This document shows positions 14,359 to 38,437 of a stretch of DNA of 46,934 bases, in pieces. Position 1 is the first letter of the stretch. Every line of letters begins with the position of its first letter. Origin of the DNA: a virus (taxonomy: Duplodnaviria > Caudoviricetes); the IMG/VR virus record IMGVR_UViG_3300017965_000001, positions 1-46,934 of that record; one strand, written 5' to 3'. The position numbers were made by a program, and so were the translations under genes. The notes under the pieces were generated by a model. That model did no database searches. It had not been told where the DNA came from and saw only the letters and a program-made list of their open reading frames with translations.

Positions 14359-14391
14359 GTCCTTAGCTTTCGGCGGCGGCGCGTTGGCGCG

Positions 14392-16495: not shown

Positions 16496-16891
16496 ATGTC
16501 GTTATGGATCGTGTCAGAGGACGCAACACCGTATACCGCGCTCGAGAGCCCGACTGCGGAGCTGGCGCTTGCCGAAGCGCTCGCGCGGGTCGACGTGGAT
16601 TCGCAGCGAGCGCGCAGCTATTCGACCTGGCTGCTCGAAGTGTCGGTCGTGTGCGAGTCGAGCGGCGAAGCGGGCTCGGCGTATGTGGAAGTACCGCCGC
16701 GCGAGCCGCTGTGCCCGACTCACGGCGTACATGCGTGGTTGCCGGTGCTCGCCGGCAGCGGCGTGCAGGTCGAATCGTGCAAGCGTTGCGCGTGCGTGCG
16801 CGAGCTTGACGAGCGGGCCATGGGCCCCGGTGGCCAGCGCTACACGCGTGTGACGTACCGCGCCGCAACGCCGCCGACGGGCTATCAGTGA
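16496..16891 (+). CDS. Hypothetical Cys/His-containing protein, antisense to the head operon
   Basis: AGGAGG RBS; TTGACC-18-TATAGC at 16440-16469; CPTHGVH and CKRCAC motifs; fills the gap between MuF and DUF2213. Confidence 0.7.
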   Translation: MSLWIVSEDATPYTALESPTAELALAEALARVDVDSQRARSYSTWLLEVSVVCESSGEAGSAYVEVPPREPLCPTHGVHAWLPVLAGSGVQVESCKRCACVRELDERAMGPGGQRYTRVTYRAATPPTGYQ

Positions 16892-16902
16892 GCGGCAGGG
16901 TG

Positions 16903-20294: not shown

Positions 20295-20328
20295 GCCGGG
20301 CTGTATTGGCAGGGTTTGCGGGTGTCAA
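20295..20328 (-). promoter_or_regulatory. Repeated promoter-like element upstream of the portal gene
   Basis: TTGACA-17 nt (ending TGCCAA)-TACAGC-CCGGC-ATG. Confidence 0.65.
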
Positions 20329-21233: not shown

Positions 21234-21267
21234 GCCGGCGTGTATTGGCACGGGCCCCCGGTGTCAA
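21234..21267 (-). promoter_or_regulatory. Repeated promoter-like element upstream of the methyltransferase
   Basis: TTGACA-17 nt (ending TGCCAA)-TACACG-CCGGC-ATG. Confidence 0.65.
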
Positions 21268-21272
21268 TCGGC

Positions 21273-22739
21273 TCATACATCGAGCGATTCGAGCCCGGCG
21301 TAGTAGTCGCCGAAGCCACCTTTCAAGCACCACCTGATGGCTTGAGTCTGGGCGTCCACGCGGTCGTTTGCGATGCCGCGGGGGAAGCGCTTGTGCTCGG
21401 TCACCCAGTCGAGAATCCAAGGCGCGAACGAAGCGTCAGGAAGCCACACATTGCCGCTCGCGAATATCGGCTGCGTCGCGTAGGCGCGCGCTTCCTTTGA
21501 CCCGTCGGGCTCGATAGCGAGCACGCCGGGTATGCTCGACTTGAGCATTTCAATCACGGCCGGACCGTTCGCCTTGTCCTCGACTAACACCGCAGACGCC
21601 TCCGGAAACTGCGCATACATGGACTTGACCGCGGCGATGGTGCCGACGAAGTCGAGGTGCTCGCGCACTTCGGCGAGCAAGAAAAAGTTGGGCGGCTTGA
21701 ACGCCCACGCTTGCCCGGCGACGTAAGAGCTCGTCTCGTGAGACTTGAATGCGCAGTCAAAAGAGATAACGACGAGCGCCCCTTCGAGCCGCGGCCGCGC
21801 GGTGTAGTAGTTATGGAACCACTCTTGTTTGTAGATTGCGCCGCCTTCCGGCACCGGGTCCTGCTGGTCTTGAGCCGCCCAACCGTCCGGACCAAATTCC
21901 TTTTTCCGCCGCTCGACTTCGGCTTCGTCCCAGCGGGTAGGGCAGAGCAGTTCGCCGTCGCTCGAGCGCGGGTCAAGCCACCCTAGCGGCGTCGGCTCGC
22001 GCGCGGCCGCGCTGTAGTAGCGCATTGGAATCGACAGCGTCGCATAGCCTTGCTCCGCCGCTAGCCCGGCAAGGTCGCGGTCGTGCAGCCGCTGCATGAT
22101 GATGGTGCGTGTGTTTTGCCCCGGCAAGACACGGCTCGCCATCGTTTCAAACCACCAACGCGTGCAGCGCTCGAGTGCCGCCGGCGAGTGTGCTTCTAGT
22201 GGTTTGATCGGGTCGTCGACGACTTGCCTGTGTGCATGAAAACCCGTCGGGGAGCCGCCGACTGATATCGCTTGGCGAATGCCCCCCTTGTCATTCTGGA
22301 GCCAGTTTGCGAGCCACCGGCCGCGCTGCGGTTTCCATTTTTCGCCGAACAGGTCGCGGTACCATTCGGTCTCGAAGAGCCCGCGACAGCGGAGGGAATC
22401 GCGCACGGCGAGCGTGTCAGCGTACGCGCCGAACTGCCATTGCGACCCGGGATTCCAGGTCCATTCGAACGCGGGCCACATGACGCATACAGTTGTACTT
22501 TTGCTGCTGCCGGGTGGCACGTTGATGACCAGGCGCGGCAGTTGTCCGCGCGACTGCGCCTCTAAGTGTTCGCACAGAGCGCCGAGATGCCAGTTGTCGA
22601 CGAATGGCGCGTTGGGCACGACGAGCGGCCACGCCTGCTTGATAAAGCTATGCAGCGTGGTTGGGCGTCGTGCCGCGCGCGTCGCTCGGCGATGGCTCTC
22701 GGCGATGAGCGTGGATAGGTCGTGTCTAGGGTGTGTCAC
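21273..22739 (-). CDS. terL: Terminase large subunit
   Basis: INVPPGSSKST, VVDDPIK, IIMQRLHDRDL, SFDCAFK, VEDKANG, FPRGIANDRVDA. Confidence 0.93.
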   Translation of the reverse strand: MTHPRHDLSTLIAESHRRATRAARRPTTLHSFIKQAWPLVVPNAPFVDNWHLGALCEHLEAQSRGQLPRLVINVPPGSSKSTTVCVMWPAFEWTWNPGSQWQFGAYADTLAVRDSLRCRGLFETEWYRDLFGEKWKPQRGRWLANWLQNDKGGIRQAISVGGSPTGFHAHRQVVDDPIKPLEAHSPAALERCTRWWFETMASRVLPGQNTRTIIMQRLHDRDLAGLAAEQGYATLSIPMRYYSAAAREPTPLGWLDPRSSDGELLCPTRWDEAEVERRKKEFGPDGWAAQDQQDPVPEGGAIYKQEWFHNYYTARPRLEGALVVISFDCAFKSHETSSYVAGQAWAFKPPNFFLLAEVREHLDFVGTIAAVKSMYAQFPEASAVLVEDKANGPAVIEMLKSSIPGVLAIEPDGSKEARAYATQPIFASGNVWLPDASFAPWILDWVTEHKRFPRGIANDRVDAQTQAIRWCLKGGFGDYYAGLESLDV

Positions 22740-23220
22740 CTACAGAGTCGCGCTCTGAGGATTGCTCATTGATTGGTGCGTCCGGCACGTATGCGATGAC
22801 GTTGGGTGCGAAATAGCTACAAGCCTTGGCGATAACCATGCCGGCCGTGAGGAATACCGGCGCTCGGTCCGGATGGCTCAATATGAGCCGAGCGAGGTCG
22901 ATATTGAGAGAGCCGAGGATGCCAATGGCATTGGCGCATAGGCTACGCCAGCAGATGACCGAGCCTAAGCCTGACTGTTCGTCGCCCAACACCCTGCCGA
23001 CGGATATCTGCAGCATAGCGCCCTGCAGCAACGCATGGACTGCTAGCAAGGGAATGGCGGGGGCGGCGCCGTCGAGGTCGGCTTCGGCTTCGGCTTCGGC
23101 TTCGGCGGCTTCGAGTAGTTTCAAGCCTGAACCTCCGATGTTTGAAGCATTCACAGCCAGGCACGTATAACCGTCGTTGAAGCGTGCGAACCATGGGTCA
23201 TCTGTTGTGTTCGTTGTCAT
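22726..23220 (-). CDS. Hypothetical protein (visibly more AT-rich; (EA)n tract)
   Basis: Fills the gap between the fibre-like gene and terL; (TCGGCT)4 at 23078-23101. Confidence 0.55.
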   Translation of the reverse strand: MTTNTTDDPWFARFNDGYTCLAVNASNIGGSGLKLLEAAEAEAEAEADLDGAAPAIPLLAVHALLQGAMLQISVGRVLGDEQSGLGSVICWRSLCANAIGILGSLNIDLARLILSHPDRAPVFLTAGMVIAKACSYFAPNVIAYVPDAPINEQSSERDSVGDTP

Positions 23221-23232
23221 TCGATTGTGTTC

Positions 23233-24474
23233 CTACCCGTTGCGCGCGCCCGGGTCGTCGTACGTGGCAGCGACCGCATACAGCCGATTGAATCCGGCGG
23301 CGTTGGACTTGAGAGTTATCTGCACGTAGTAGGATTCGTTGTAAGGCTCCGAGGCGCCCGGGAGCACCAGCGTGAACCGGTTGGCGAACGTCGTCGCGTA
23401 GAGGTTGCAGGTCACTGAGACGAGCAGTTCTGGAGTGGGTGGATCGCTAGCGACCACCGTCATGTCGCGAATCGCGCGGTACACTTCGATCACGTTTTGG
23501 TGCGATGCGTCCTGACTCATTTGCAAGACCTCGACGTTACGGTTGACTGCTTCTCGAGGCCAATGCAGCGGGTACTCGAGAATGCGATCGCCGCCGGTCG
23601 TAGTGTGCAGATAGCCGTCGGCGTAGTTGTAGTTGGCCGAGATGGTGCTGCCGTTGACCTGCTGGCCGGCCATGAGTGGTATGTGCACGCGACGTCGCGG
23701 CTGCGGACTCGTGTGCACGATGTCGACGTCGTCGTCGAGATAGAGGTGCGCAGCGTTGAACGTCGCGTCGCCGTTGAATACGGCAGAGCCGTTGGAGGTG
23801 AACGCGCCGGCGACGGTGATGGTGCCGGCGGTGTCGATGCCGGTCACGACGTTGAGCCCGGCGTTCATGAGCACATGGCCTTCGAACACCGCAGATACGG
23901 CAGGGTCTGGCGTGGTGACGTGTAGCGTCTGGGTGTTGAGGTTGGTGAAGCCCGCCACGGTCCAAGCGCTGTCCAACCAGGTCGAAGCCGTGGCCGCGTG
24001 CCAGAGAAGCTCGAGCACGCCGCTCGTGCCGTTGTTGACGAGCGCGATCGCCGACGCGGTCGATGCCGCGACTTCGCAGACCCAGCTCGAGCCACCCCAT
24101 GTGGCGTTGTGCGTAAAGATGAGCCGGCGAGTCGCCGTGTTGCCGGCGTAGACGTTCACGTGCTGGGTCGCGTTGACGAGCACGCGCTGCAGCAAGCGAT
24201 ACCCGCTCGCGGCCGGCGCCGTCGTGACGTCGAGCAGCGGCGCGAACATGTCCGTGTTGGCGAAGTTGAGTTTTAGGTCCGGAGTCGGCGAGCCGTTCGT
24301 CGCATCGGCGAGAAACTGCAGCCATGCGCCGGCCGAGTTTTGCAGCCAGTTGAGCCACTCGGCCGGTGGCCGTTCGTTGACGAGCCAGCCTTGCGACTTC
24401 TTACCGGCGCCGGGTTCGACGTTCGTGCCGGCGGTCGACCAACTAGGGATGGCAATCGTGGGGCGCGTGGACAT
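23233..24474 (-). CDS. Tail fibre-like protein located between the terminase genes
   Basis: N-terminal W..EPGAGKKSQGW..ERPPAEWLNWLQN resembles myophage fibre baseplate-attachment segments; the remainder is beta-rich. Confidence 0.7.
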   Translation of the reverse strand: MSTRPTIAIPSWSTAGTNVEPGAGKKSQGWLVNERPPAEWLNWLQNSAGAWLQFLADATNGSPTPDLKLNFANTDMFAPLLDVTTAPAASGYRLLQRVLVNATQHVNVYAGNTATRRLIFTHNATWGGSSWVCEVAASTASAIALVNNGTSGVLELLWHAATASTWLDSAWTVAGFTNLNTQTLHVTTPDPAVSAVFEGHVLMNAGLNVVTGIDTAGTITVAGAFTSNGSAVFNGDATFNAAHLYLDDDVDIVHTSPQPRRRVHIPLMAGQQVNGSTISANYNYADGYLHTTTGGDRILEYPLHWPREAVNRNVEVLQMSQDASHQNVIEVYRAIRDMTVVASDPPTPELLVSVTCNLYATTFANRFTLVLPGASEPYNESYYVQITLKSNAAGFNRLYAVAATYDDPGARNG

Positions 24475-24477
24475 TGT

Positions 24478-25053
24478 CTATGTGTTCTCTTCGGTGAGCA
24501 GTGGGTCCGTTGGCAATGCACGCACATACCCATGCGCTGCAATGGCCGCTTCGAGCTCTTCGTCGGTCATTTCAGCCGGGGCTTTGGTCACGCGCAGCTG
24601 TTGCTTAGCGCCGTAGCGCTTCGGGAAGCGACGCTCGAGCCACCACGCGTTCGCCTTCCAGTTGTCCGCGGCGGCCGTCGCAATGAACTGCACGGCCGTG
24701 GCTTCCGCGCGTGCGACGGCGATCGCCAAGTCTTGGTCGAACGTGGCGAAGGGCTCTTCGCCGTGCTTGCCGCGCTCGCGCCAGTCGTAGAGCGTGCGCG
24801 CGCCGATGCCTTCGAGCTGGCAAGCGGTGCGGATGGGCACGCGCACGGCGACGAGCGCGCAGACGCGTTCGTGCAGCGCCGGCGTGTAGAGGCTCGGCCG
24901 GCCGCCGACGTTCGGCGCCGGTGGTAGAGCGGGCGGGTCGGGATGTTTCCGCACTCGCGGGGGCCGCCTACGCGCGCGCGATGGTGCGGAAACCCGTGTG
25001 TCAGCTGTCTTACGCTTGCGCTTCTTCGCGGTCTTTTTGGACTTAGGTGGCAT
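24478..25053 (-). CDS. terS: Terminase small subunit
   Basis: GRPSLYTP, HTH-like TACQLEGIGARTLYDW, WKANAWWLERRFPKRYG, EMTDEEL. Confidence 0.78.
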   Translation of the reverse strand: MPPKSKKTAKKRKRKTADTRVSAPSRARRRPPRVRKHPDPPALPPAPNVGGRPSLYTPALHERVCALVAVRVPIRTACQLEGIGARTLYDWRERGKHGEEPFATFDQDLAIAVARAEATAVQFIATAAADNWKANAWWLERRFPKRYGAKQQLRVTKAPAEMTDEELEAAIAAHGYVRALPTDPLLTEENT

Positions 25054-25387
25054 TGGCGAGCCCTCCGGTACCGCGGCGCTCGCGGCGCATGCGGCAGCGG
25101 TTACAACGTGCCGAGCGGCGCTGTCGCCACGCCGACGCGGCAATCAAGCGCTCGACGCCACAGCGGCAGCGGATGCGCATGCACGTCTCGAGCTCGCCGT
25201 TCGACCGCCGGCGTGTGCTCGTGTGGATGATGACCCAATCGCGCTCGAGCGGGTCGACGAGCGGCGGCGCGCGGTGCGTGACAACGCAGTGTTCGCACAA
25301 GCCGCCCCACCTACGCAACGGCGGCAGCTCGCGCGCGCATGCGCGGCAGTGCGTCGGCGTGGCTGGGATGGGCTTGAGCGCGAGCAT
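25043..25387 (-). CDS. Cys-rich (zinc-finger-like) hypothetical protein
   Basis: CRAC, CEHC, CRCG, CNRC; tightly packed with neighbours. Confidence 0.6.
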   Translation of the reverse strand: MLALKPIPATPTHCRACARELPPLRRWGGLCEHCVVTHRAPPLVDPLERDWVIIHTSTRRRSNGELETCMRIRCRCGVERLIAASAWRQRRSARCNRCRMRRERRGTGGLANAT

Positions 25388-26769: not shown

Positions 26770-26987
26770 AGCGTGGCGCTCCGTGGGTTTGCGGGGGTCG
26801 GGTCGGGTCGAATCCAGCACCCGCACTTCGAGCGTCTGGAGTAGCTACCGCGCGCGTCGATGAGCACGACGGAGACGAGTTTTGGGCGGCCGCACCGCTC
26901 GCACCTGGCGTCCGGACACGCGCATGCATGGTCGACGCGCATGTGCACGCGCGAGCCATGAAGCAGGCATCGCGGGCAAAGCCTCAC
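26766..26987 (-). CDS. Small Cys-rich protein (73 aa)
   Basis: GTGA and ATGA overlaps at both ends; AAGGGGG RBS; CPRC, CAC, CERC, CGC. Confidence 0.55.
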   Translation of the reverse strand: MRLCPRCLLHGSRVHMRVDHACACPDARCERCGRPKLVSVVLIDARGSYSRRSKCGCWIRPDPTPANPRSATL

Positions 26988-27688
26988 GGTGCCCCCTTGC
27001 GCATGTCGCCGGTAGGGATGGCGATGAGGTCTGCGCACTCGACGAAGAGACTCGAGAGCGGCGGTGATGTGTAGCGCTTGGCAAAGACCGTGTCGGTCAT
27101 GCGCGTGGTGACGATGGTGCGCTGGTGCGTGCGATGCGCGAGCATGTCGAGCAGCGCATCGGCCATGCTGTCGGCGCGGTCTGGTCGCTCGTCGCCGATG
27201 CCGTCGAGCACGAGCAGCCGCGACGTCTGGAGCATGGCGCGGCGCTGCAGTACTTCGCCGAAGCTCGAGACGTAGCACTCGAGCAGGGTGCGCCCAGAAG
27301 CCCACCTGGCGCCGCTTGTCAGCGCGAGCACGGCGGCTGCGGCGACCGACTTGCCGGACCCGGTGACGCCGTGCAGCACGAGAATCGGCCGCGACGGCGG
27401 CACGCCGGGCTGTCGCGGCACCGGCGAGCCGGGGGCGCTGTCGCGCCAGAGCAAGGCGGCGTTCAGGGCGTAGCTGCCGCTGAGAGTCCCGCGCACGATG
27501 GCGTCGTGCATCGCCGGCGTGATTGGCAGTGGATGGCCGGCGCGCTCGAGCGCAGCCTTGCGGGCGGCGCGCTCGGCGAGCCGCATGTCGTCGCTGGCCT
27601 GGGCTTCGGTCTGCTTGCTGTTGGCGATAAACGCCCGTTGCAGCCGCTGCAGGACGGTCGCAAGGCGCTCGCCGGCATGCTCGGTCAT
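26984..27688 (-). CDS. DnaC/IstB-like helicase loader ATPase
   Basis: LHGVTGSGKS, LLVLDGIGDE, TIVTT; follows the initiator. Confidence 0.82.
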   Translation of the reverse strand: MTEHAGERLATVLQRLQRAFIANSKQTEAQASDDMRLAERAARKAALERAGHPLPITPAMHDAIVRGTLSGSYALNAALLWRDSAPGSPVPRQPGVPPSRPILVLHGVTGSGKSVAAAAVLALTSGARWASGRTLLECYVSSFGEVLQRRAMLQTSRLLVLDGIGDERPDRADSMADALLDMLAHRTHQRTIVTTRMTDTVFAKRYTSPPLSSLFVECADLIAIPTGDMRKGAP

Positions 27689-28875
27689 GACGCACCCCGG
27701 GCGCCGTCGACGCGCGCCGTGAGCCAGCTGGGCTGATTGGTGGCGGCGGAGCGCTCGAGCTCGGCGCGCGTCTGGTCGAGCTCGGCTTGCGTGTCGCCGG
27801 GTCTAGGTAGCGGCGCCGAGCCCCGTAGTCGCGGCGGGTTGCCGCTCAGGTAGTGGGCCCAGTGGTCCATGACGTGCGAAGGGGTGAACCAAAACGGCGA
27901 CTCTGAGAGGTTGGTGAGCACGGTGCGGGCGCACGCGGCGACCCGCTCGCGCTCGGCGGCGGGGGCCTTCCCCATGTATTGGTAGGCTTCGAAGTGCTTG
28001 GAGCTGGGCGTCGGCGACGGCGCGGTGAGCGTGCAGGTGGTCCAGATGAGCTCGTGATACCAGCGGTGCCCGACGACCTCGCTCGGGATTGGAAAAACGC
28101 CGCTGTCATGCGGGCGCGCGCGCGCGGCAGTTGTGAATTGAGTAAGAGCGGCGGCGGTTAAGATCTGAGATTCTTCTCTCTCTTTAAGATCTGAGAACGC
28201 GCGCGCGAGGGCGTGACCGTCACGCTTCGGCGCGTGACTGTCCCCGTGACTGTCACGCTCGCATGCGGCGTGACTGTCCCCGTGACTGTCACGCTTTTTT
28301 CGGGCCCGCTGGCGACGCTTGCGCTCGGTCCCGGGGCTCTCTTGGGTGAGTGCGTATTCCTCCAAAACGTAGGCGCCATCGAGACTTCGCGCGACTTCGC
28401 CGGCGGCTTCGAGCTGCGCGATCGCGTGCTGCACTTGGTGGCGTTGGATTTTCACGAAGCGCGCTATCGCGGCGAGCGTGAGCGGCTGCATGTCTGCGTC
28501 GCGAATGGACTGCGCCGGGTGCACGTCGCCGCGCTCCATCTCTGCGTGACAGTCACGCTCGCGCGGTGCGTGACTGTCCCCGTGACTGTCACGCATGCGG
28601 GCGCGCTCTTCGGAGCGCCGGGCGAGCTGCAGCAAGCCGACCCAGACGGCCAGTGTGATACCGTCGAGCGGCGAGTCGGCCGCCCAGTACCGAGACGAAA
28701 CCTTGACCGTGAGCTGGCGCTCCGGCGCGTGCGTTGGTCGTGGTCTGGTCGAGGCTTTTGCCATAGGCTGTGACCTGCTCATTTCGGAAACGCCGGGCTC
28801 GCCGCTATCCCCCACCCACACACTGGAAAGCGGCGGGCTCGGCGGCGACGGTTGCACCACGCAGTGGAGCGTCAA
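27685..28875 (-). CDS. Phage replication initiator / replisome organiser (start may be 28782 or 28764)
   Basis: wHTH-like segment, ERKRRQRARKK, internal DNA repeats; lies upstream of the DnaC-like gene. Confidence 0.75.
   Translation of the reverse strand: MTLHCVVQPSPPSPPLSSVWVGDSGEPGVSEMSRSQPMAKASTRPRPTHAPERQLTVKVSSRYWAADSPLDGITLAVWVGLLQLARRSEERARMRDSHGDSHAPRERDCHAEMERGDVHPAQSIRDADMQPLTLAAIARFVKIQRHQVQHAIAQLEAAGEVARSLDGAYVLEEYALTQESPGTERKRRQRARKKRDSHGDSHAACERDSHGDSHAPKRDGHALARAFSDLKEREESQILTAAALTQFTTAARARPHDSGVFPIPSEVVGHRWYHELIWTTCTLTAPSPTPSSKHFEAYQYMGKAPAAERERVAACARTVLTNLSESPFWFTPSHVMDHWAHYLSGNPPRLRGSAPLPRPGDTQAELDQTRAELERSAATNQPSWLTARVDGARGAS
28158..28594. repeat. Putative lytic origin: iterons within the initiator gene
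   Basis: GCGTGACTGTCCCCGTGACTGTCACGC at 28232, 28268 and 28568; GCGTGAC-n-GTCACGC at 28211 and 28544; AT-rich TTAAGATCTGAGA at 28158 and 28184. Confidence 0.75.
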
Positions 28876-29177
28876 GCGGTCGCAGCCGACAGCTGCACGG
28901 CGCGCTTGCGCTTCGCGGGCTTCTTGCCGGCAGCGGGCTTCGGCGGCGGCGCTTTCTTGCGCTTGCGTTTGGGCGCCGGCGGCAGCGGTGACGCGCAGAT
29001 TTCGTCGACGGTGACGACGTAGTTCGTGGCCGCGGCAATCTTGTGGGCCGTCGTGTAGAGCGGCTTCACGCGCCGATGCACGGCGCGCAGAATGGCGGTG
29101 TAGCTAAGCCCCGTTTGCAGCTGCAGCCGCGTCAACACGCCGGCGTCTTGTGTCTCGACCCATTGCGCCAATTGCAT
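28872..29177 (-). CDS. Cro-like HTH regulator
   Basis: LQLQTGLSYTAILR..TAHKIAAATNYVVTVDEI; divergent from an Xre repressor. Confidence 0.7.
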   Translation of the reverse strand: MQLAQWVETQDAGVLTRLQLQTGLSYTAILRAVHRRVKPLYTTAHKIAAATNYVVTVDEICASPLPPAPKRKRKKAPPPKPAAGKKPAKRKRAVQLSAATA

Positions 29178-29191
29178 GGGTCCGATGTAAT

Positions 29192-29207
29192 ATGGCCACG
29201 TGGCCAT
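29192..29207. promoter_or_regulatory. Palindromic operator candidate ATGGCCACGTGGCCAT
   Basis: Perfect 16-bp palindrome upstream of the cro-like ATG; variants at 31479 and 39304. Confidence 0.6.
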
Positions 29208-29273
29208 GTATAGCCCGAATGCGACGACTCACGAATGCGCATGCGGACGCACACCCGCGCACCGTGCACACGT

Positions 29274-29313
29274 GTGCACTTGAGCACTGGTGCTCCGGTG
29301 CTCTAGTGCTCTG
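29274..29313. repeat. 8-bp repeat array C in the cro/repressor intergenic region
   Basis: gtgcactt gagcactg gtgctccg gtgctcta gtgctctg. Confidence 0.7.
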
Positions 29314-29506
29314 GATTGGCTAATGCTCGGCGGCCACTGGCCTTTTGGGCTAGGTGCCGTAGGCTAGTGTGTGAGACGTTTTTTCGGGCGCGTTTTGGGA
29401 CTGCCGCTAGAGCTTGCGCGCGTGACCTAAAACCGCTAGGTCGCGGTTTGTGGGTTGGAAAGGGAAGATAGCTCGCGAGCCAGCGCCGGCGCTGGACGCG
29501 GACCCG

Positions 29507-30046
29507 ATGAGCGAATCGACGCTCGGCCGGCGGATATGGGCGCTCTTCATGCGCGAGGGCTATACGAAAGGCGCGTTCGCGGCGGTGCTTGGCGTGTCGT
29601 ACGGTGCCGTCGACAACTGGACGCTCGGGCACACGCTGCCGAGCATCCCGACGTTGATGCGGATTGCGCTGATGTTCGAAGAGTCGCTCGAAGACTTGTG
29701 TTTCGGAAGCGAGGGGCGGGAGCGATACCGAGCCGGGCTTGAGCTGCCGTCGGTGCTCACGGGTGCGGACGTCGCGGCGTGGCTCGCCGAGCGCAAGGCG
29801 ACGCCGCGGCAAGTCGCGGCAGTGATGCGCGCGTGTGCGCAGCGACCTGCCACGATGCCGTGGCTCGAGACGTATTGGAGCGAGCGCACGCCGAAGTCGA
29901 AGTCGAAGGGCGAAGGGCGGGCGAGTCTGCAAGAGATTCGCGAGCTGGCGCGAGCGGATGGGCGTGCGCCGTACTCGCCGGAGACGATCACCGCCGCGGT
30001 CGAGCAATCGCAGGTGAGACGGTCAAAGTCACGTCGACGGGCCTAG
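29507..30046 (+). CDS. Xre-family HTH repressor (CI-like, no peptidase domain seen)
   Basis: LGRRI..GYTKGAFAAVLGVSYGAVDNW..PSIPTLMRIA..SLEDL. Confidence 0.8.
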   Translation: MSESTLGRRIWALFMREGYTKGAFAAVLGVSYGAVDNWTLGHTLPSIPTLMRIALMFEESLEDLCFGSEGRERYRAGLELPSVLTGADVAAWLAERKATPRQVAAVMRACAQRPATMPWLETYWSERTPKSKSKGEGRASLQEIRELARADGRAPYSPETITAAVEQSQVRRSKSRRRA

Positions 30047-31567: not shown

Positions 31568-32371
31568 ATGACGAGTGAAGCAGATGACGGGATTCAGAGC
31601 AAGAGTGTCCGCGAGCGAGTAGCGCTGATGGCGGCTAAGGCCGGCGGTGGGTTGCCGCGGAGAGTCCCGTGCTATAACGCGAGGTTTTTGGCGATGCCTA
31701 AGCTGTTTTTGACCGCTCGTGTGTTCGGGGTCGCGCCAGCGCAGTCCGCGCCCGTGAAGGTGGATCAGATGCCGCTAGCTGCCGCGGAGGGGTACGTTGT
31801 CCACTACACTGGCCGATTGCTCACCCAGACGCATGGCGATGTGCTGATGGCGTTGATGTCGCTGTTAGGTGGGGTTGAGCAGGGTAACGAGATCAATGTG
31901 CGAATCTGCGACCTCGAGCGCGTGCTGTGCCGCTCGAGCGGCAAGCGGAACCGTGACTATCTATGGGACCAGATTGTGGATCTAGGCACCGCCTGGTTGC
32001 GTGTTCGGCACGATGGTGTTGAGAGCTTCGGGGCCCTGGTGCCGTTTGGGCGCTGGGATGGGCAGGCCGTCACGCTCGAAGTGAACCGCGACCTGATAGA
32101 GTTCGCGCACGGTGGGTTTACGCTGATTGACAGAGACGCGCGGCGGCAGCTGGTTCGCAAGCCATTGGCCCAGTGGCTGCAGCTTTATACCGCGTGGCTT
32201 GCCTCTGACGGTCGCCGAGCCGTCGAGCTCGCTGAGGTGCACGAGGCATCTCGTAGCGAGATGGTGCGGCGCAAGCTGCGGTTTCGCGCCAAGGAGGCGC
32301 TTTACGAGTTGGCGGCTGTGGGCGCGCCTGCTTGGCGTCTCGATGCTGACGACTGGCTGCGCGCGGTGTAG
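31568..32371 (+). CDS. TrfA-like plasmid replication initiator
   Basis: YTGRLLTQTHGDVLMAL and TLID..RRQL..KPLAQWL..Y resemble TrfA-family motifs; followed by iterons. Confidence 0.72.
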   Translation: MTSEADDGIQSKSVRERVALMAAKAGGGLPRRVPCYNARFLAMPKLFLTARVFGVAPAQSAPVKVDQMPLAAAEGYVVHYTGRLLTQTHGDVLMALMSLLGGVEQGNEINVRICDLERVLCRSSGKRNRDYLWDQIVDLGTAWLRVRHDGVESFGALVPFGRWDGQAVTLEVNRDLIEFAHGGFTLIDRDARRQLVRKPLAQWLQLYTAWLASDGRRAVELAEVHEASRSEMVRRKLRFRAKEALYELAAVGAPAWRLDADDWLRAV

Positions 32372-32399
32372 GCGCAGTCAAGATAACGCCGGCGCGCAG

Positions 32400-32444
32400 A
32401 GCGCCCGCGCGATACGTCCAGACGGATCGCGCGGGCGCTTTTTT
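32400..32444 (+). terminator. Intrinsic terminator after the trfA-like gene
   Basis: agcgcccgcgcgat / atcgcgcgggcgct stem followed by a T6 tract. Confidence 0.8.
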
Positions 32445-32470
32445 GCGTCCGGAAGCGTGCCGAGTGCGGC

Positions 32471-32730
32471 TGTGGATAAGTCACGGAGGAGGAACGCTGT
32501 CCCCACGGAGGAGGAACGCTGTCCCCACGGAAGACGAACGCCTCCCCGTCTGGGAATCGCGCGCGCGCCCGCATGTATCGGCGCTTCGACGCGTTAACTT
32601 CCGTCTGTACGTCTTCTGCAGATTCAGCAGAATCTGCAGATTCAGAAATCTGCAGGAGAACCAGATCCAATCTGGGATCTTGCTCTGTGTGGGTTGGGTT
32701 AAGAGCTAGAAGCGTATTGCCTACGTTTCT
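32471..32730. other. Putative plasmid origin (oriV)
   Basis: DnaA box TGTGGATAA at 32471-32479; 22-bp repeats CACGGAGGAGGAACGCTGTCCC at 32482 and 32504, degenerate at 32526; TCTGCAGATTCAG at 32615 and 32633 in an AT-richer tract. Confidence 0.78.
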
Positions 32731-33038
32731 AGAGACCGCGCACGCGCGAGCGTACATGCGCGGTCGGGCCACGTGTCAAGCAAATAGCGCTCGGCGGCTC
32801 TAGCGCCGGGCTCTATCTCGCGCGCTAGCGCGCCAAGGCTCTAGCTCGCGAGCGCGTGCAGCCATGTCGCTGAAACACCTGTTGCACGCACGACGTTCGC
32901 GCAAGAAGGCTTCGAGTGAAGGGTGACTCCTACAGAGCGGTCGCGGTCTCGCGCGGCTTGTGGAGGCGTTTGGCAGTTCGCAGCGCGCGCGACCGGTGAT
33001 GCCTAGCGGCGATTGCGCCAGCGGGCTATACGGCAGCG

Positions 33039-33419
33039 ATGTCGGCAGTCGTGGGATTTGGCGCGCGTCTCACGGCGGCTCGTGAGAGAGCGGGGTTGAC
33101 GCAAGAGGGGATGGCCGGTCGGATGGGTGTCGTCTCCGCGACCGTGTCGCGTTGGGAGCGCGAGCTGGTGCTGCCGCAGTCCGAGCAGTTGGTCGGGCTC
33201 GCTGAGACGCTCGGCGCGAGCCTCGACTACCTGCTGCGCGGACTCGGCACTCACGACGCCAACACGTTGATCTTTCGAGCGTTCCTTGCGACGACGCTAG
33301 GACAGATTGCGCAAGAGCGTCGCTACATCGAAGTGTTGCTGTCGGTGCGAACGACCCGGCCGTCGGTCGGGCTCTACAAAGCGGTCACGGCCGGACTTCT
33401 GATGGCCGACGACGAGTGA
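33039..33419 (+). CDS. Xre-family HTH regulator
   Basis: FGARLTAARERAGLTQEGMAGRMGV..TVSRWER..P..LAETLGASLDYLL. Confidence 0.88.
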   Translation: MSAVVGFGARLTAARERAGLTQEGMAGRMGVVSATVSRWERELVLPQSEQLVGLAETLGASLDYLLRGLGTHDANTLIFRAFLATTLGQIAQERRYIEVLLSVRTTRPSVGLYKAVTAGLLMADDE

Positions 33420-33421
33420 GG

Positions 33422-33886
33422 TCACGGAACGCGCACCGCGTCGACCTCCCATCGTAGCTTCGTCTGCAGCGGATGCGTATCGACGCGCGGGCGCCCGGCG
33501 CGGGACCACGTGCCCCCCCCCGCTTCACCAATCAAACGCCAACCAGCGCCGCGCAGACTGCCGCCGGTCTCGGTCGCAAGGGTGTAGGTAACGCATCGGC
33601 GGTAGCCCATCGCGCGCGCCGCTCGCCATGCCGCCGCGTAGAGCTTCGAGCACGCGTTCTGCGCATCGTCGAGCACACACAGGCGTGTGACTTCGGCGGT
33701 GAAGCCATCGTCCGACATGCGGGCGATGGGTCGGCCGACGATAGCCACACCGACGACCGCGTTGTCCCGCGCGACGGCCAAAGCAAACAAGCCGCCTTGT
33801 GGCGCGTCATGGTGACGATGGTGCTGGGTCACGAAGGCGGATGCTTCGCGCAGCGTTGTCGGGACGAGCACGAGCGCGACCTGCAC
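33422..33886 (-). CDS. XF1762-family protein (GNAT-like fold)
   Basis: AFVTQHHRHH, GVAIVGRPIAR..DDG..EVTRLC, NACSKLYAAAWRAARAMGY..TYTL..E.G.SLRGAGW. Confidence 0.8.
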   Translation of the reverse strand: MQVALVLVPTTLREASAFVTQHHRHHDAPQGGLFALAVARDNAVVGVAIVGRPIARMSDDGFTAEVTRLCVLDDAQNACSKLYAAAWRAARAMGYRRCVTYTLATETGGSLRGAGWRLIGEAGGGTWSRAGRPRVDTHPLQTKLRWEVDAVRVP

Positions 33887-33967
33887 GTCGACGCGTATTG
33901 GCAGCGGCAGCGACTGTCAAGCGACAGGTTGCTCGGTGACTCGGTCGACCGGTGCACCGATGCACTT
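33887..33967 (-). promoter_or_regulatory. Repeated promoter-like element plus 8-bp array D (33928-33967)
   Basis: TTGACA-17 nt (TGCCAA)-TACGCG-5 nt-GTG; array gttgctcg gtgactcg gtcgaccg gtgcaccg atgcactt (plus strand). Confidence 0.7.
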
Positions 33968-33968
33968 G

Positions 33969-34277
33969 TCACTTCGGCTCGAAGCCGCGCTCGGTGAACA
34001 CGGCGTCAATGCATGTGTTGAGCTCGCGGGCGTTCTGCTCGGCGAGCGCAGCCCTGATGGCTGCGTCGAACGGCCGTGTAACGCGCACGAAGTCGGCCGC
34101 TTCGCGCATCGCGATCGGGTCGCCGGTCGCGATGCTCGCGCGCATCGCGTCGCATTGTCGTATCAGCTCGGCGAGCCCTTCGAGCAGCTCGGCGCGTTGC
34201 TCGGCGGCTGTCGGCTCCGTGGTTGGCTTCGCCGGCGAGCGGCGGCGATGGCGTCGGGTTCGGGTCTTCGGCGACAT
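33969..34277 (-). CDS. Hypothetical protein
   Basis: 102-aa helical ORF filling the gap. Confidence 0.5.
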   Translation of the reverse strand: MSPKTRTRRHRRRSPAKPTTEPTAAEQRAELLEGLAELIRQCDAMRASIATGDPIAMREAADFVRVTRPFDAAIRAALAEQNARELNTCIDAVFTERGFEPK

Positions 34278-34367
34278 GTGGCGGTTACAGCGCGACGGAT
34301 CACACGCGCTAATAACCTTTAGCGGGGCTGACTTGCGTAGGTCCCCGGAGCCATACTAGGCTCTAGT

Positions 34368-34637
34368 ATGGCCAAAACGACCAGCTTCATTCTCGGCGAC
34401 GAGCTCGACAAGTACGTGCGCGAGCAGGTCGACTCGGGTGAGTACGCGACAGCCAGCGATGTGATCCGCCATGCGCTCGGCCGGATGGTGGACGAAGACC
34501 GCAAGCTCGAGTGGGTGCACGCCGCGCTCGACGAAGCGCTTGCGAGCGGGCCCGCGCGCGAAGGTGGTTTCGACCGCGTGCTCAAGCGGCTCGAAGCGCT
34601 CGAGCAGAGTGAGCCGCGCCGGGCGGCGGCGAAGTGA
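34368..34637 (+). CDS. parD: ParD-family (RHH) antitoxin
   Basis: TSFILG..YVREQVDSGEYATASDVIRHAL..ALDEALASG. Confidence 0.9.
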   Translation: MAKTTSFILGDELDKYVREQVDSGEYATASDVIRHALGRMVDEDRKLEWVHAALDEALASGPAREGGFDRVLKRLEALEQSEPRRAAAK

Positions 34638-34921
34638 GGGTGCTTCTGCGACCGCGTGCCGAAGATGACCTCGACGGCATCGCGCTCTACACGCGGCGGG
34701 AATGGGGGCACGCGCAAGCGGTGCAGTACATCGGGCAGCTACGGGCTACGTGCGAGCACGTACTGCCCGAATGTCACCGGCTTGCGCGGCCGCTCGGCGA
34801 GCGACCCGACGTGCTTCGATGGCGCTGCGAGCGGCATGTTATCTACTTTCAGCGCGTACACGACGGGCTCGAGGTCATGCGCATTCTGCACGAGCGCATG
34901 GTCCCGGGTCTGCACTTGTAG
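34634..34921 (+). CDS. parE: ParE-family toxin
   Basis: RAEDDLDGIALYT..WG..QA..Y, RHVIYF, EVMRILHERM; overlaps the antitoxin stop. Confidence 0.9.
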   Translation: MRVLLRPRAEDDLDGIALYTRREWGHAQAVQYIGQLRATCEHVLPECHRLARPLGERPDVLRWRCERHVIYFQRVHDGLEVMRILHERMVPGLHL

Positions 34922-34929
34922 CGACTGGG

Positions 34930-35118
34930 TTAGCCGCCGCTCGGTCGTGCCTTCAATCGGGCAACGAACGCCGCCATCCGTTCAGGGTCTGCGTCGAGTG
35001 CGTCGAGTTCCTTGGTGACGACCTCGACGAGCAGCTCGACGGGGTCGCGGCCGAGCTCGCGTGCGCGCTCGAGCAGTAGACGTTCCGTGTCGGGCTTGAG
35101 GGTGAACGTGTCGGCCAT
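34930..35118 (-). CDS. Small RHH/CopG-like protein
   Basis: TFTLKPDTERLLLERARELGRDPVELLVEVV; GAGG upstream. Confidence 0.5.
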   Translation of the reverse strand: MADTFTLKPDTERLLLERARELGRDPVELLVEVVTKELDALDADPERMAAFVARLKARPSGG

Positions 35119-35126
35119 CGCCCTAG

Positions 35127-35933
35127 CTATTCCTCGGCCGCCTCGACACTCGCGCATCCCGGGCACATGCGATCGAGCACGCGGAAGCAGCACACACACC
35201 GTCGTTGCAGTTTTTCGTTTTGCTCTGCCGATGTTGCCCAACGGCAGTTGCTCGGCTCGTAGTTGCCGTCGCCGTCGATGCGATCGAGAGACGTCCTCTC
35301 TGGGCGTGGCCCCATGTCTGCATAGAAGTTGTCAAATGACGCCAGCCATCGCGTGCAGATTATGATGCCTCGCCCGCCATAGTACGGGTAGGCATGGTGA
35401 TTGCGATTCAGGCACCTACTGCGCATCCCCTGATAGGTGCGATACTCGCGACTTTTGCTCATGCCGTGTGTCGTCACGGGAGCACGGTCGGCGGGCCTGT
35501 AGAGTTTCTTGTCGCGAGCGCATCCGCACGACCTGCGGTTTCCAAGTCGCAACTGCTGTGCGCTAATAACACGCTCTGCACCGCATTCGCAGCGACACAG
35601 CCACAGGCCTTGGCGCGTTCGCTGGCCGTGCGCTTTTGCGATTACGCGATAGAGGCCAAACAATTGGCCGACCTCGATTTTGCCTCCCGTGTGAAGCGGC
35701 AGCTCTATTTGTTGCGAGCTGGCTCGTTTTTCGGCTCGAGCATTCTGCTGGCCCTCGCCGCGGCATCCACACGACTTGCTCAATCCGCCCGTGAGGTTTG
35801 ACTGATAGACGACGCGCTCATTTCGACAGACGCAGCGACAAAGCCACCTAGTCGCGTTCCGTAGAGCCGGAGCAGCCTTTGCAATCACACGATAGTGACC
35901 AAAGACCGAGCCGACCTTGACAGTGGGCGTCAT
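35127..35933 (-). CDS. HNH-type endonuclease with two Cys-rich repeats
   Basis: Two FG.YRVI..WLCRC.C..SCGC repeats; YGGRGI..C..W..F..DMG; SLDRID.DGNYEPSNCRWAT. Confidence 0.85.
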   Translation of the reverse strand: MTPTVKVGSVFGHYRVIAKAAPALRNATRWLCRCVCRNERVVYQSNLTGGLSKSCGCRGEGQQNARAEKRASSQQIELPLHTGGKIEVGQLFGLYRVIAKAHGQRTRQGLWLCRCECGAERVISAQQLRLGNRRSCGCARDKKLYRPADRAPVTTHGMSKSREYRTYQGMRSRCLNRNHHAYPYYGGRGIIICTRWLASFDNFYADMGPRPERTSLDRIDGDGNYEPSNCRWATSAEQNEKLQRRCVCCFRVLDRMCPGCASVEAAEE

Positions 35934-36019
35934 CGCGCTGCTCTCGCGGCGTTCGCAGCGACCCCCATTCGAAAGGAAGGCGGCGCCGGGCTCGTCGTCT
36001 TGCGTTGAAGGGGCCTCAC

Positions 36020-36100
36020 TCGAGTCAGTATTGGCAGCCTGCTCGACCGTCAAGCGCCAAGTGGCTCGGCGCATCTATGCACCGGTGCACCGGTGATCCG
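36020..36100 (-). promoter_or_regulatory. Repeated promoter-like element plus 8-bp array E (36061-36100)
   Basis: TTGACG-17 nt (TGCCAA)-TACTGA; array gtggctcg gcgcatct atgcaccg gtgcaccg gtgatccg (plus strand). Confidence 0.65.
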
Positions 36101-36204
36101 GACCGCTTTTTCTTAAGCCTCTGCGTCCGGGCGTCGAACAGTTCCGCAGGCTTAGCGGTGCAGATCGGAAGGCCCTGAGCGCGAGCACACCCATAGTGTG
36201 GGTG

Positions 36205-36232
36205 AGTTTACATAATGGTTGTTATCGGGCGT
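36205..36232 (-). other. dif-like XerC/XerD recombination site
   Basis: ACGCCCGATAA-CAACCA-TTATGTAAACT: 11-6-11 layout with ATAA/TTAT inner repeat and a XerD-like arm; intergenic. Confidence 0.8.
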
Positions 36233-36295
36233 AAACCCGGAAATCTCAGAAAAGGCGGGATGTCAACGGCGTCACGGCGTTGTCCGCAGTCGCGC

Positions 36296-37048
36296 CTATG
36301 CACCGGCGTGTCTGGTCGCAACCGGTGGCAAAAGATACGTGAGCCGGCCGCGTACGTGCGTACTGTCAACCCACGCCTGCAAGCGCGGCCGCCCCTTGCT
36401 TCGGTCAACGCGGGCGCTCCAAATGTGCACCGGGGGCGTCGCTCGCGGGTCTTCGAGCATGACCAAGACGGCTTCTTCGCGTTGCGGGTCGAACCGTGGC
36501 TCTCTGGTGCGCCGCGGCTCTCCGACTACCTGGCTCGATACCCACACTTCGCTCACTGCGTACAGAGCGACGGCGTGCTCCGCCGAAGCTAAGCCACGCA
36601 CGAGCGCCGGCAGTTCTTTCGCGTTTTCGTAGGTGTCGCCAACGGGCGACGCGAAGACTAGGCCGGCGGGCGTCACAAGGACGAAGAGCGGGGCTTCGAG
36701 CACACGCGCGGCGCGAAACTTGTCGCACGCCCATTGCAGCATGATGGGCACCAACACTTCAGGGTGCTCGCACGGCGACAGGTCGGTCGACGCGACCTCC
36801 GGGTATGGCGCACGGATGCATTGAAAACCGAGCATGCGAGACCTTCGCCCAACCCGGGCGCGGACGCAATCCGGATGCATCACACCTCCGACGACATCGT
36901 CTCGAAGCGCTCGAGACGCTTGCCGCTCAAGCTCGACGACACCGGCGCGCATGCTTTCGCGCAGCTCGGCGCGACGTGGCGTTAGCGTGGTGTTCGTCAC
37001 TTCGGTCGCCTCTCGGCCTTCCGTGGCTTTGCTGCTTCGAGCGCTCAT
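36296..37048 (-). CDS. Hypothetical protein
   Basis: ATG 37048 preceded by TTGACC-18-GACACT; globular C-terminal half with SEVW and DPQREEAVLVMLE. Confidence 0.6.
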   Translation of the reverse strand: MSARSSKATEGREATEVTNTTLTPRRAELRESMRAGVVELERQASRALRDDVVGGVMHPDCVRARVGRRSRMLGFQCIRAPYPEVASTDLSPCEHPEVLVPIMLQWACDKFRAARVLEAPLFVLVTPAGLVFASPVGDTYENAKELPALVRGLASAEHAVALYAVSEVWVSSQVVGEPRRTREPRFDPQREEAVLVMLEDPRATPPVHIWSARVDRSKGRPRLQAWVDSTHVRGRLTYLLPPVATRHAGA

Positions 37049-37093
37049 GAATCTAGTGTCGGCCGAACCATCGACCCGGGTCAATACGTTCCG

Positions 37094-37133
37094 ATGCTCT
37101 TGTGCACCGGTACACCGGTCGCCAGATGCGCCG
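37094..37133. repeat. 8-bp repeat array F upstream of parA, between divergent -35 boxes
   Basis: atgctctt gtgcaccg gtacaccg gtcgccag atgcgccg. Confidence 0.7.
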
Positions 37134-37183
37134 AGCGACAGTAGCATTGACGCTCGCGGGCTCTAGCGCTACGGCTAGTGCCT

Positions 37184-37900
37184 ATGAGCTACACCGTTGC
37201 TATCGCAAACCATAAAGGCGGAGTCGGCAAGACGACTACAGCCGTGTCGCTCGGCGTCGAATGGCGCACGCGCGGCGTGAGCGTGCTGATCGTCGACACT
37301 GACTACCCACAACACCATGTGGTGACGTGGCTTGGTCTCGCGTCTGAGCTGGGCCATCTAGATAACGCGCCAGTGGTGCGAGCGATGCCGGCGGCGGCGC
37401 TCGCGAAGCAGTTGCGGAAGGTCGGCGCCGGCTTCGACCTGGTGATTCTGGACACGCCCCCACGCCAACCCGAAGTGCAAGCGGCCGCCGTCGCGATGGC
37501 GGACCTCGTAGTCGTTCCGACGGGCTCGCAAGCGCAAGAGATGTGGGCTCTTTACGATACGGCCGCGCTTGTGCAGGCTGAGATGAGGCGTCGCCCGGCG
37601 TGCGTCACCGTGGCGCTGCTCACGCGGTGGAAGGGGCAAACCGTGATGGGTCGACATGCCGCGGCCGCGATCGCCGAAGTCGGACTGCCGACGCTCGAAG
37701 CGCGGTGCTGTGACCGCGTCGACTATCCCTATGCGTTTGCGGCCGGGCTCGGCGTCACCGAATACGCGCCGATGAGCGAGGCAGCTCGCGAGGTGCGTGA
37801 GCTCGCCAACGAGCTCGAAGAGCTTGCGGACGGCGGCATACCCAAGCGCGCCGCAGCGTCGACCCGGAAGGGCTTGCGCCCGGTGGAGGTGCGCTCATGA
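37184..37900 (+). CDS. parA: ParA partition ATPase (short, type Ib/ParF-like)
   Basis: NHKGGVGKTT, VLIVDTD, DLVILDTPP, ADLVVVP, AAREVRELA. Confidence 0.92.
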   Translation: MSYTVAIANHKGGVGKTTTAVSLGVEWRTRGVSVLIVDTDYPQHHVVTWLGLASELGHLDNAPVVRAMPAAALAKQLRKVGAGFDLVILDTPPRQPEVQAAAVAMADLVVVPTGSQAQEMWALYDTAALVQAEMRRRPACVTVALLTRWKGQTVMGRHAAAAIAEVGLPTLEARCCDRVDYPYAFAAGLGVTEYAPMSEAAREVRELANELEELADGGIPKRAAASTRKGLRPVEVRS

Positions 37901-38316
37901 AGTCGCGTCCGATGGCATCGCCGCGCTCGGCGCGACAAACAGCAATCCCGGGCTCGGGCGTCGACGACCTGGCGCTCGAGCTCGTCGACAAGCCCACCGG
38001 CGTCAAGGGCTCGGCGCGCGGGCTCGTGCACCGGCGGCGCAAGGCTGAGCTCGACCGGGTCACGAGCTACTTGCCCAAGGCGATCGGCGAGAAGCTGCGC
38101 GCCCATTGCGCGAGCCGTCGTATCGAGATGTCGACCGTCGTCGCGGATGCGCTCGAGCGATTCTTCGGCGGCGGCGCCGCGCTGCTCACCACGGCGACGC
38201 TCGAGCGGCTCGGCGAGCGGGCCGACGCGCTCGACCTGAGCGCATCCGAAGCGGCCGAGACGGCTGCGAAGGAGTGGATTGCGCGTAACGAGCTGGCGTC
38301 GCGCAAGCGACGTTAG
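37897..38316 (+). CDS. Ribbon-helix-helix partition partner (ParG/omega-like)
   Basis: ATGA-coupled to parA; unstructured N-tail, then RVTSYLPKAIGEKLRAHCASRRIEMSTVVADALERF. Confidence 0.72.
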   Translation: MKSRPMASPRSARQTAIPGSGVDDLALELVDKPTGVKGSARGLVHRRRKAELDRVTSYLPKAIGEKLRAHCASRRIEMSTVVADALERFFGGGAALLTTATLERLGERADALDLSASEAAETAAKEWIARNELASRKRR

Positions 38317-38381
38317 GCGGCTGTATCCGGCGGTGTAGAGCCCCTGGACTCGGGCCGGGCGGCGCTTATGTCCGACGTGTG

Positions 38382-38437
38382 GTATACCAGTGCACCGAAG
38401 CATCGATGCACTGGCGCACCGATGCTTCGGTAGACTG
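38382..38437. repeat. 8-bp repeat array G downstream of the par operon
   Basis: gtatacca gtgcaccg aagcatcg atgcactg gcgcaccg atgcttcg gtagactg. Confidence 0.75.

Follow-up and report, generated by a model that had tools for sequence, protein, structure and literature searches.

An apparently undescribed family of probable soil phage-plasmids with exchangeable replicon and resolution cassettes

How would a contractile-tailed phage that carries a repressor and no recognizable integrase persist in its host? The question is raised by IMG/VR record IMGVR_UViG_3300017965_000001 (G000), all 46,934 nt of which form the window analyzed here; other members of its family are referred to as G or L records. 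A reading made from the letters alone (the sequence-only reading) had described an integrase-less myophage with a complete TrfA-type plasmid maintenance module at 31568..38437 and had proposed a small phage-plasmid of a possibly undescribed type. That proposal is supported here, and comparative data strengthen it: we put a probability of about 80% on a temperate myophage that persists as a low-copy circular plasmid, not as an integrated prophage, its likely host being a soil myxobacterium.

An exact 123-nt direct repeat occupies both ends of the window. When it is collapsed, two broken frames fuse into a 1878-codon tail-fibre frame across the junction; because this frame is restored, the assembly is read as a closed circle of 46,811 bp, and IMG/VR classes the record as having direct terminal repeats and being 100% complete. 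The earlier claim of a circular genome is upheld, the myophage genome in the window being complete, and its virion module is likewise full:

2150..25143, minus strand: packaging, head, tail and baseplate module of a myophage (PHROG and Pfam matches)

The genes recognized by PHROG and Pfam are those for TerS/TerL, portal, protease, major capsid, neck, sheath, tube, chaperone, tape measure, baseplate and fibres. Pfeifer's definition of a phage-plasmid asks for virion, packaging and lysogeny-control genes, and the window has them from terminase to baseplate, with a CI-like repressor; the definition also asks for a replication initiator with an origin, and a candidate initiator lies at the start of the putative maintenance module:

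31568..32371, plus strand: Rep, a predicted divergent TrfA-like iteron-binding initiator of 267 aa with tandem winged helices (tblastn, structure, relatives)

Rep has no direct match in Pfam, NCBIfam or PHROG, and both sequence and profile searches of the Protein Data Bank (PDB) returned none. A profile comparison of 31568..32371 with the TrfA family, asked for in advance, was negative: neither Rep nor 12 close relatives match the TrfA model PF07042 at its gathering cut-off. The trfA-like identity read from the sequence is nevertheless borne out by homology and fold. Rep matches 90 plasmid records by tblastn (listed rows mostly annotated trfA; best E 2e-11 to 5e-11, 23-27% identity), TrfA (PF07042) clusters rank top in an ESM Atlas structure comparison (TM 0.84-0.90), and 28/40 scanned phmmer relatives match PF07042 (27 over the cut-off; 12/40 do not), the sample being 40 of 150 listed relatives (P0015-P0056 minus P0035 and P0053). 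An AlphaFold model built from a 128-sequence alignment (pLDDT 90) resembles pi (Z 12.9, root-mean-square deviation [rmsd] 3.4, 199 residues aligned) and RctB (Z 12.9, rmsd 4.3, 211 aligned), both well above the next rows, with RepE also among the matches; an earlier model from 13 sequences was poor (pLDDT 52) and was discarded. These fold matches place Rep with the tandem winged-helix initiators of iteron-type theta replicons, and sequence and model together indicate a divergent TrfA-like, double winged-helix, iteron-binding initiator. No Rep/TrfA relative was found among 50,697 GenBank phage records.

More distant TrfA-like Reps (33-45%) adjoin a short ParA on 5-39-kb contigs or stretches (L004/L013, L014, L017, L040, L041, L042), and one contig with such a Rep and ParA is IMG/VR record G014; further TrfA-like phage-plasmids may exist. 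Two Arsenophonus TrfA plasmids, the first of them covered over 27 of its 34 kb, were considered as related phages and rejected as conjugative-type.

The sequence directly downstream of rep has the elements of an origin:

32400..32444, plus strand: intrinsic-terminator-like hairpin and T-tract at the end of rep (hairpin 32400-32439, 19-bp arms, z -5.3)
32471..32479, minus strand: perfect DnaA box, TTATCCACA (motif scan and conservation)
32482..32547, plus strand: three iterons with a 22-bp period (repeat search; 7/7 family origins)
32548..32790, no strand: GC-rich spacer, AT-richer candidate unwinding element and conserved downstream block (GC scan and conservation)

The terminator, DnaA box and three repeats named in the sequence-only reading all stand. 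The z score of the hairpin was measured against 200 shuffles, and an equivalent hairpin follows rep in L001, L003 and L009; a consensus terminator scanner did not detect the hairpin at 32400-32439. The DnaA box alone is weak evidence, since the window has two such boxes against 0.46 expected, but a box occupies the equivalent position in 6/7 family origins and is inverted in both type-B origins (defined below). Three repeats with 21-22-bp spacing are present in 7/7 family origins with sequence available. Positions 32631-32730 have the highest AT content of any 100-bp stretch in the genome (GC 46% vs. ∼66%); two copies of one 13-mer (32615 and 32633) border this stretch, as had been noted, although relatives have either one or two copies, and the block downstream of the AT-rich element is conserved in 7/7 origins. 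Rep and this region supply the initiator and origin of the phage-plasmid definition. The likeness to RK2 drawn from the sequence does not extend to the layout of the origin: RK2 oriV combines five 17-bp iterons with four DnaA boxes and as many 13-mers (PMC4980987), and because these numbers differ from those in the window the origin is best described, on its sequence, as a generic iteron origin and not an RK2-type one.

Relatives were gathered by Rep and TerL searches, the latter returning 17 loci at 81-94% identity. Rep is found at the matching position in 5/5 relative records that are at least 84% complete (G002, G003, G005, G006 and G007) and also in the fragments L001 and L009; G008 and G009 end short of the Rep region. 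G001 (L001) and G010 share an overlap of 126 identical bases and are apparently parts of a single genome. The Reps fall into two types, A and B, ∼30% identical to each other and each with its own iteron core: type-A Reps accompany GAACG/CAACG-core repeats, and type-B Reps (G005 and G007, where the iteron register was read by eye) accompany TTCCAGACA-core repeats and the inverted DnaA box. Between G005 and L009 the adjacent gene is 98% identical and the Reps only 29%; in the Rep tree G005 pairs with G007 (100/100), whereas in the neighbor-gene tree it pairs with L009 (98/100). Close relatives share ∼80-94% identity with the window in structural genes and 52-53% in Rep. These comparisons indicate that Rep-iteron cassettes are swapped on a conserved backbone, the repeats changing when Rep changes. 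Read functionally, this is the pattern expected of working replicons that escape incompatibility; in P1, two alternative replicases at one locus yield the compatible types IncY and p0111, according to the account in PMC7969092.

Directly upstream of rep in 7/7 relatives covering that stretch lies a conserved gene (30653-31411, phrog_874) of unassigned function, which tracks the phage backbone tree, not Rep.

The next part of the module holds the candidate addiction and partition genes, accompanied by arrays of an 8-bp repeat:

34368..34637, plus strand: ParD antitoxin (PF03693 and TIGR02606, over cut-off)
34634..34921, plus strand: ParE toxin (PF05016, over cut-off)
37184..37900, plus strand: short ParA (type Ib, ParF-like) partition ATPase (NF041546, E 3.5e-48)
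37897..38316, plus strand: predicted, likely ribbon-helix-helix (RHH) centromere-binding protein (weak RHH profile matches)
37096..37125, no strand: 8-bp repeat array (GCACCGRT type) upstream of parA, likely centromere/operator
38392..38431, no strand: 8-bp repeat array downstream of the RHH gene, likely centromere/operator
36063..36102, no strand: 8-bp repeat array beside dif (repeat scan)
near 33940, 16159, 16365 and 4411, no strand: additional 8-bp repeat arrays (repeat scan)

ParDE, already recognized from the sequence, is also present in L009 and G010. ParA (238 aa) is without an N-terminal helix-turn-helix (HTH) and scores 163.8 bits with NF041546, just under the cut-off of 180. Its small partner, called RHH in the sequence-only reading, has weak profile support and matches the product of the gene after parA in pSa001 (HH probability 84%, E 7.8e-6). 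A short ParA of this kind with a small RHH adaptor makes up a type Ib system; the ParA assignment is upheld, and support for the RHH assignment is weak to moderate. The position of the parA-RHH pair is kept in G002, the G003 contig, L009, G006, G007 and G010. The octamer arrays, overlooked earlier, occur at 5 loci, or 7 when the threshold is loosened, whereas 20 Markov controls gave none. They are common to the window and its close relatives; in G001+G010 another octamer forms the arrays, again at 5 loci, and only 1-2 arrays, built of yet another unit, are present in G006 and G007. ParB of plasmid pMF1 binds 8-bp imperfect palindromes that flank its operon and are dispersed over the plasmid (PMC3235114), and by analogy the arrays are likely centromeres of the putative parA-RHH system. 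ParA, the likely RHH protein and the arrays correspond to the partition system in Pfeifer's definition.

The segment 16140-16900, between the protease and head-morphogenesis genes, is flanked by the octamer arrays at 16159 and 16365 and varies in length among members. It contains the second perfect DnaA box of the window (16385-16393), probably a chance occurrence because the equivalent array in the G003 contig is without a box.

Between the addiction and partition genes lies the interval in which members differ in how dimers might be resolved:

35127..36074, minus strand: HNH endonuclease gene, in the slot of the Cre-like recombinase of L009 (phrog_374, E 7e-69)
36205..36232, minus strand: dif-like XerCD site, 11-6-11 (XerD arm identical to Myxococcus xanthus dif)

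That there is no recombinase, as first read, is true of the window and not of the family. In the window, neither tyrosine recombinases (PF00589; 14/14 control genomes positive) nor serine recombinases (PF00239; 13/14 control genomes positive) were matched, and a profile from 120 Cre-like relatives found nothing significant in six frames. Five relatives (G002, the G003 contig, G006, G007 and L009) have the gene for a Cre-like enzyme in the corresponding slot; all 17 PDB matches of the recombinase (L009 homologue) are Cre or Tre, and the enzymes of G002, G006 and G007 are over the PF00589 cut-off. A 91%-identical segment shared by the window and L009 stops at the HNH-gene boundary. The dif-like site reported earlier holds: it has the 11-6-11 layout and conserved XerC/XerD arms of a XerCD site, matching M. 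xanthus dif (sequence from PMC2731167) at 11/11 positions of the XerD arm, 9/11 of the XerC arm and 22/28 in total. The site in L009 is identical to that of the window, and G010 keeps the XerD arm with a different spacer. Thus distributed, dif occurs without a recombinase in the window and the distant member G001+G010, the Cre-like gene without dif in G002, the G003 contig, G006 and G007, and both in L009; the G005 record is without the resolution interval. The simplest reading of these sequences is that the Cre-like enzyme and dif would be two interchangeable ways of resolving circle dimers.

The exact dif site of the window has no match in other viral contigs, and a search with an E. coli-type dif pattern gave no match. 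At least 119 viral loci (L080-L198), mostly low-GC and with varied spacers, carry dif-type arms; phage-borne or phage-adjacent dif sites may be common. In run X1, possibly the source sample, a 47-nt record (depth 7.8) shares exactly 30 bases with 36143-36172 and then diverges, ∼30 bp from dif; a relative present in the sample or a CRISPR spacer could account for it. In the source contig of G003, a Uma2-family endonuclease gene of myxobacterial type (L010:13048-13629) lies directly upstream of the Cre-like gene.

The repressor belongs to a block upstream of the maintenance module:

26984..30046, no strand: likely immunity and lytic-replication block (PHROG repressor matches; weak MarR/AAA/IstB matches)
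29450-30046, plus strand: CI-like HTH gene, divergent from the genes for a Cro-like protein, an O-like HTH protein and a P-loop loader-like protein (PHROG)

From gene order and weak matches only, this is likely a lambdoid cI-cro-O-loader block; a PDB profile search gave no support for the loader-like protein.

Three other lifestyles have to be weighed. It is unlikely, in our view, that the phage integrates at the host chromosomal dif via XerCD in an IMEX-like manner and uses the plasmid module only for a transient extrachromosomal phase. An intact dif-like site without a recombinase would suit this route, as would the dif-type arms in at least 119 viral loci and an HTH match to the Xer-activation-factor family that is weak (NF040522, E 0.001, far under cut-off) and probably generic. 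However, in 3/3 dif-bearing members the site is intact and internal, with phage genes on both sides; one X1 contig, of a kind that drops rare variants, spans dif with no loose end there; and no attL/attR junctions at dif were found in the assembled contigs of two runs, which could miss rare integrants, or in three members. Moreover, four relatives have no dif at all, the spacer differs between the window and G010, and the full set of Rep, Par and toxin-antitoxin genes is retained. Very unlikely, too, is an integrating temperate family in which the tyrosine recombinase is the integrase and the window lost it to the HNH gene, perhaps becoming lysogeny-defective. The PF00589 cut-off is passed in G002, G006 and G007, IMG/VR labels G002, G003, G005 and G007 "provirus", and G002 begins exactly at the recombinase start (G005 ends at the RHH start). 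Yet the enzyme is Cre-like, with relatives on plasmids including Myxococcus pYRE; the "host" flank that IMG/VR trimmed from G003 is phage DNA, 84% identical to the parA region of the window (L010:14619-20580, G003 source contig), and similar trimming may have affected G002, G005 and G007. The recombinase gene has an internal position in G007 and is part of a closed circle in G006, and the second, distant member without a recombinase (G001+G010) has dif.

The idea that Rep and its origin serve lytic replication only, with the Par and toxin-antitoxin genes as passengers from past plasmid contact, can draw on the weak matches behind the O-like and loader-like identities and on an assembly that could derive from virions. 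We hold it to be highly improbable: the Rep-iteron cassettes have diversified and been swapped as expected under plasmid incompatibility, parA-RHH has stayed in place across the members listed above, and a CI-like repressor is present. For the extrachromosomal configuration itself, the window and G006 are both closed circles. Several points, besides the "provirus" labels and the record ends of G002 and G005, weigh against maintenance as a plasmid or against parts of the scheme. The terminal repeat in the assembly is equally compatible with circularly permuted virion DNA or a plasmid; Pfeifer's definition also lists lysis genes, and no endolysin or holin was recognized by PHROG or Pfam among the scanned open reading frames of the window, several small genes being without assignment; the RHH protein does not match pMF1 ParB significantly (probability 1.8%); an HTH protein whose divergence follows the same pattern could be using the octamer arrays as its operators instead; and a search near the Cre-like genes for a lox-like inverted repeat gave none.

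For a temperate phage maintained as a plasmid, the reading that we prefer, the parts can be assembled as follows. Rep monomers would occupy the three 22-bp iterons that immediately follow their own gene; together with host DnaA at the adjoining box, they would melt the AT-richer element so that theta replication can begin. Copies would be segregated by the short ParA and the RHH protein through the dispersed 8-bp arrays acting as centromeres, as in pMF1, and ParDE would kill cells that lose the element. Host XerCD would act on dimers at the dif-like site, a task for which most relatives would use their own Cre-like recombinase. Upon induction, the separate cI/cro/O/loader-like block would drive lytic replication, and the phage DNA would then be packaged into contractile-tailed virions. 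What the analysis shows directly is the anatomy, the fold class to which Rep belongs, how Rep and iterons are conserved and vary together, and which members have Cre or dif; each of the activities above, the plasmid state and the host are inferred.

A Myxococcota-like host, at first an impression from composition, now has evidence behind it, and we judge it likely because of the best ParA matches, the RHH match in pSa001, the Uma2 clusters, GC content and soil origin. Among 1917 plasmid records, the top three rows for ParA are Myxococcus fulvus pMF1 and two Sandaracinus pSa001 entries. The Uma2 gene of the close relative L010 matches three clusters whose commonest phylum is Myxococcota, and the GC content of the window (∼66%) and the soil origin of both metagenome runs examined fit a myxobacterium. 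Other results pull away from this assignment. The ParA matches to pMF1 and pSa001 are only 37-38% identical. The dif site is equally near that of Acidobacteria Ellin345 (22/28, from the sites given in PMC3025954) and that of M. xanthus (22/28), and only 6/119 viral loci with matching dif arms have a GC content of at least 60%; with the acidobacterial tie and dif arms common in low-GC viral loci, the dif sequence alone was rejected as a host marker. The top plasmid match of the Cre-like protein is in Alicyclobacillus (46%), followed by Myxococcus pYRE (43%), and a genome scan found no host genome with the element, only distant Reps (22-45%) in four metagenome-assembled genomes, which are probably other plasmids. 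Plasmid searches with the Uma2 and HTH proteins were uninformative on the host. Myxococcus stipitatus pYRE was considered as a known relative and rejected: it has no virion genes and only the Cre-like gene in common.

Two accessory genes lie between the origin and parDE:

33039..33419, plus strand: XRE-type HTH regulator (Pfam HTH_3/HTH_31; 87% in L009, 36% in G007)
33422..33886, minus strand: Mom-like DNA modification gene (phrog_1384, E 3.5e-37; elsewhere in G005)

In G005 a Mom-like gene occupies the slot between TerL and portal where the window has a C5 cytosine methyltransferase gene (20325-21251), of which G002, G003, G005, G006 and G007 have no homologue. The junction-spanning tail-fibre gene (∼1830 aa; 43460-46811 + 1-2135) is made of 201/273-bp repeats, is variable among relatives, and is followed by collagen- and glycine-rich genes.

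How new is such an element? The element would follow a P1-like plan, with an initiator related to that of RK2 and a partition system like that of pMF1. P1 is about twice the size of the window, and its partition uses ParB, where the window has a type Ib ParA and RHH protein. Both are circular myophages with an iteron-type Rep, partition and toxin-antitoxin genes and Cre, the last in relatives and not in the window; the initiator here is TrfA-like, and dif replaces or accompanies Cre in some members. The Cre-like enzyme of five relatives brings the family closer to P1 than the sequence-only reading held, and types A and B recall the alternative replicases of IncY and p0111 (PMC7969092). RK2 shares a TrfA-like initiator and has the DnaA box, iterons and AT-rich element with repeats in the same order. 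It differs in that PF07042 is not matched here, identity to annotated TrfA is 22-27%, the origin directly follows rep and conjugation genes are absent; with three 22-bp iterons, one box and two variable 13-mers, the window also departs from IncP-1 origins as described for RK2 (PMC4980987). Like pMF1 and pSa001, the window has a ParA (37-38% identical) with a small DNA-binding partner downstream, the partner in pSa001 matching the RHH protein, and its octamer arrays are placed as in pMF1 (PMC3235114), with binding in the window only predicted. Neither plasmid is a phage, and pMF1 has parC and an unrelated initiator, as reviewed in PMC11610982.

The contrast with known phage-plasmids proved smaller than first claimed. 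A 42.7-kb myophage-plasmid of Piscirickettsia salmonis (NZ_CP039224.1, PLSDB) also has a DUF3383 sheath, a Rep beside par genes and no tyrosine recombinase. It differs from the window in that only 7/58 window proteins match (23-39%; Rep 23%), its ParAB has a Spo0J-type ParB, and no dif-like site with matching arms was found in it; it probably belongs to the PiSa community. The elements of the SSU5 supercommunity (SSU5_pHCM2, pCAV, pKpn and pMT1) are larger and occur in Enterobacterales. They share the broad double winged-helix class of initiator, and geNomad labels their Rep profiles "TrfA protein" (tyPPing Table S2, PMC12977533), yet these Reps are Rep_3/phrog_775, which the Rep of the window does not match. 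These labels and the Piscirickettsia element are precedents that limit the surprise. TP228 ParF/ParG/parH likewise joins a ParA-family ATPase and an RHH protein to an array of short spaced boxes (PMC3130281), whereas the arrays of the window are GC-rich, near-palindromic and dispersed over the genome, with binding only predicted.

Judged by TerL, capsid, sheath and Rep as proxies, membership in a curated phage-plasmid type (such as AB_1, P1, N15, the SSU5 group and cp32) is unlikely: the best TerL among 50,697 GenBank phages is 40% identical, and among 72,556 plasmids the best major capsid protein is 36% and the best sheath 35%. The curated types, of which tyPPing has ten, stem from few hosts. 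A literature search, mostly of titles and abstract openings, found no description of the group or of a myxobacterial phage-plasmid, though published supplements could list a related element; the string "Myxo" is absent from the main text of Pfeifer 2021 (PMC7969092). Integration is the rule in known myxophages such as Mx8, and a review from 2023 counts no more than two self-replicating plasmids in myxobacteria, along with a single shuttle-vector lineage (PMC11610982). The family would have been easily overlooked, because Rep escapes Pfam, PHROG and NCBIfam and because in at least one member the plasmid module was cut away by IMG/VR as "host" DNA.

The window thus apparently belongs to an undescribed soil phage-plasmid family with exchangeable replicon and resolution cassettes. 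The stronger proposition is evenly balanced in our judgment: that this is the first Myxococcota phage-plasmid family, whose members trade whole maintenance cassettes on a conserved myophage backbone. Its TrfA-like Rep-iteron types would number two or more, perhaps several, and be mutually compatible; each lineage would have its own 8-bp centromere code; and dimers would be resolved by a Cre-like enzyme of the phage itself or through a host XerCD/dif site. If true, the phage-plasmid lifestyle would reach a new phylum, and a tailed phage-plasmid would be outsourcing dimer resolution to its host. As a natural experiment, the family would let Cre and host XerCD be compared as dimer-resolution systems and the co-evolution of Rep with its iterons be followed, and its minimal, possibly compatible replicons would be ready material for vectors in the myxobacteria, a group short of plasmid tools.

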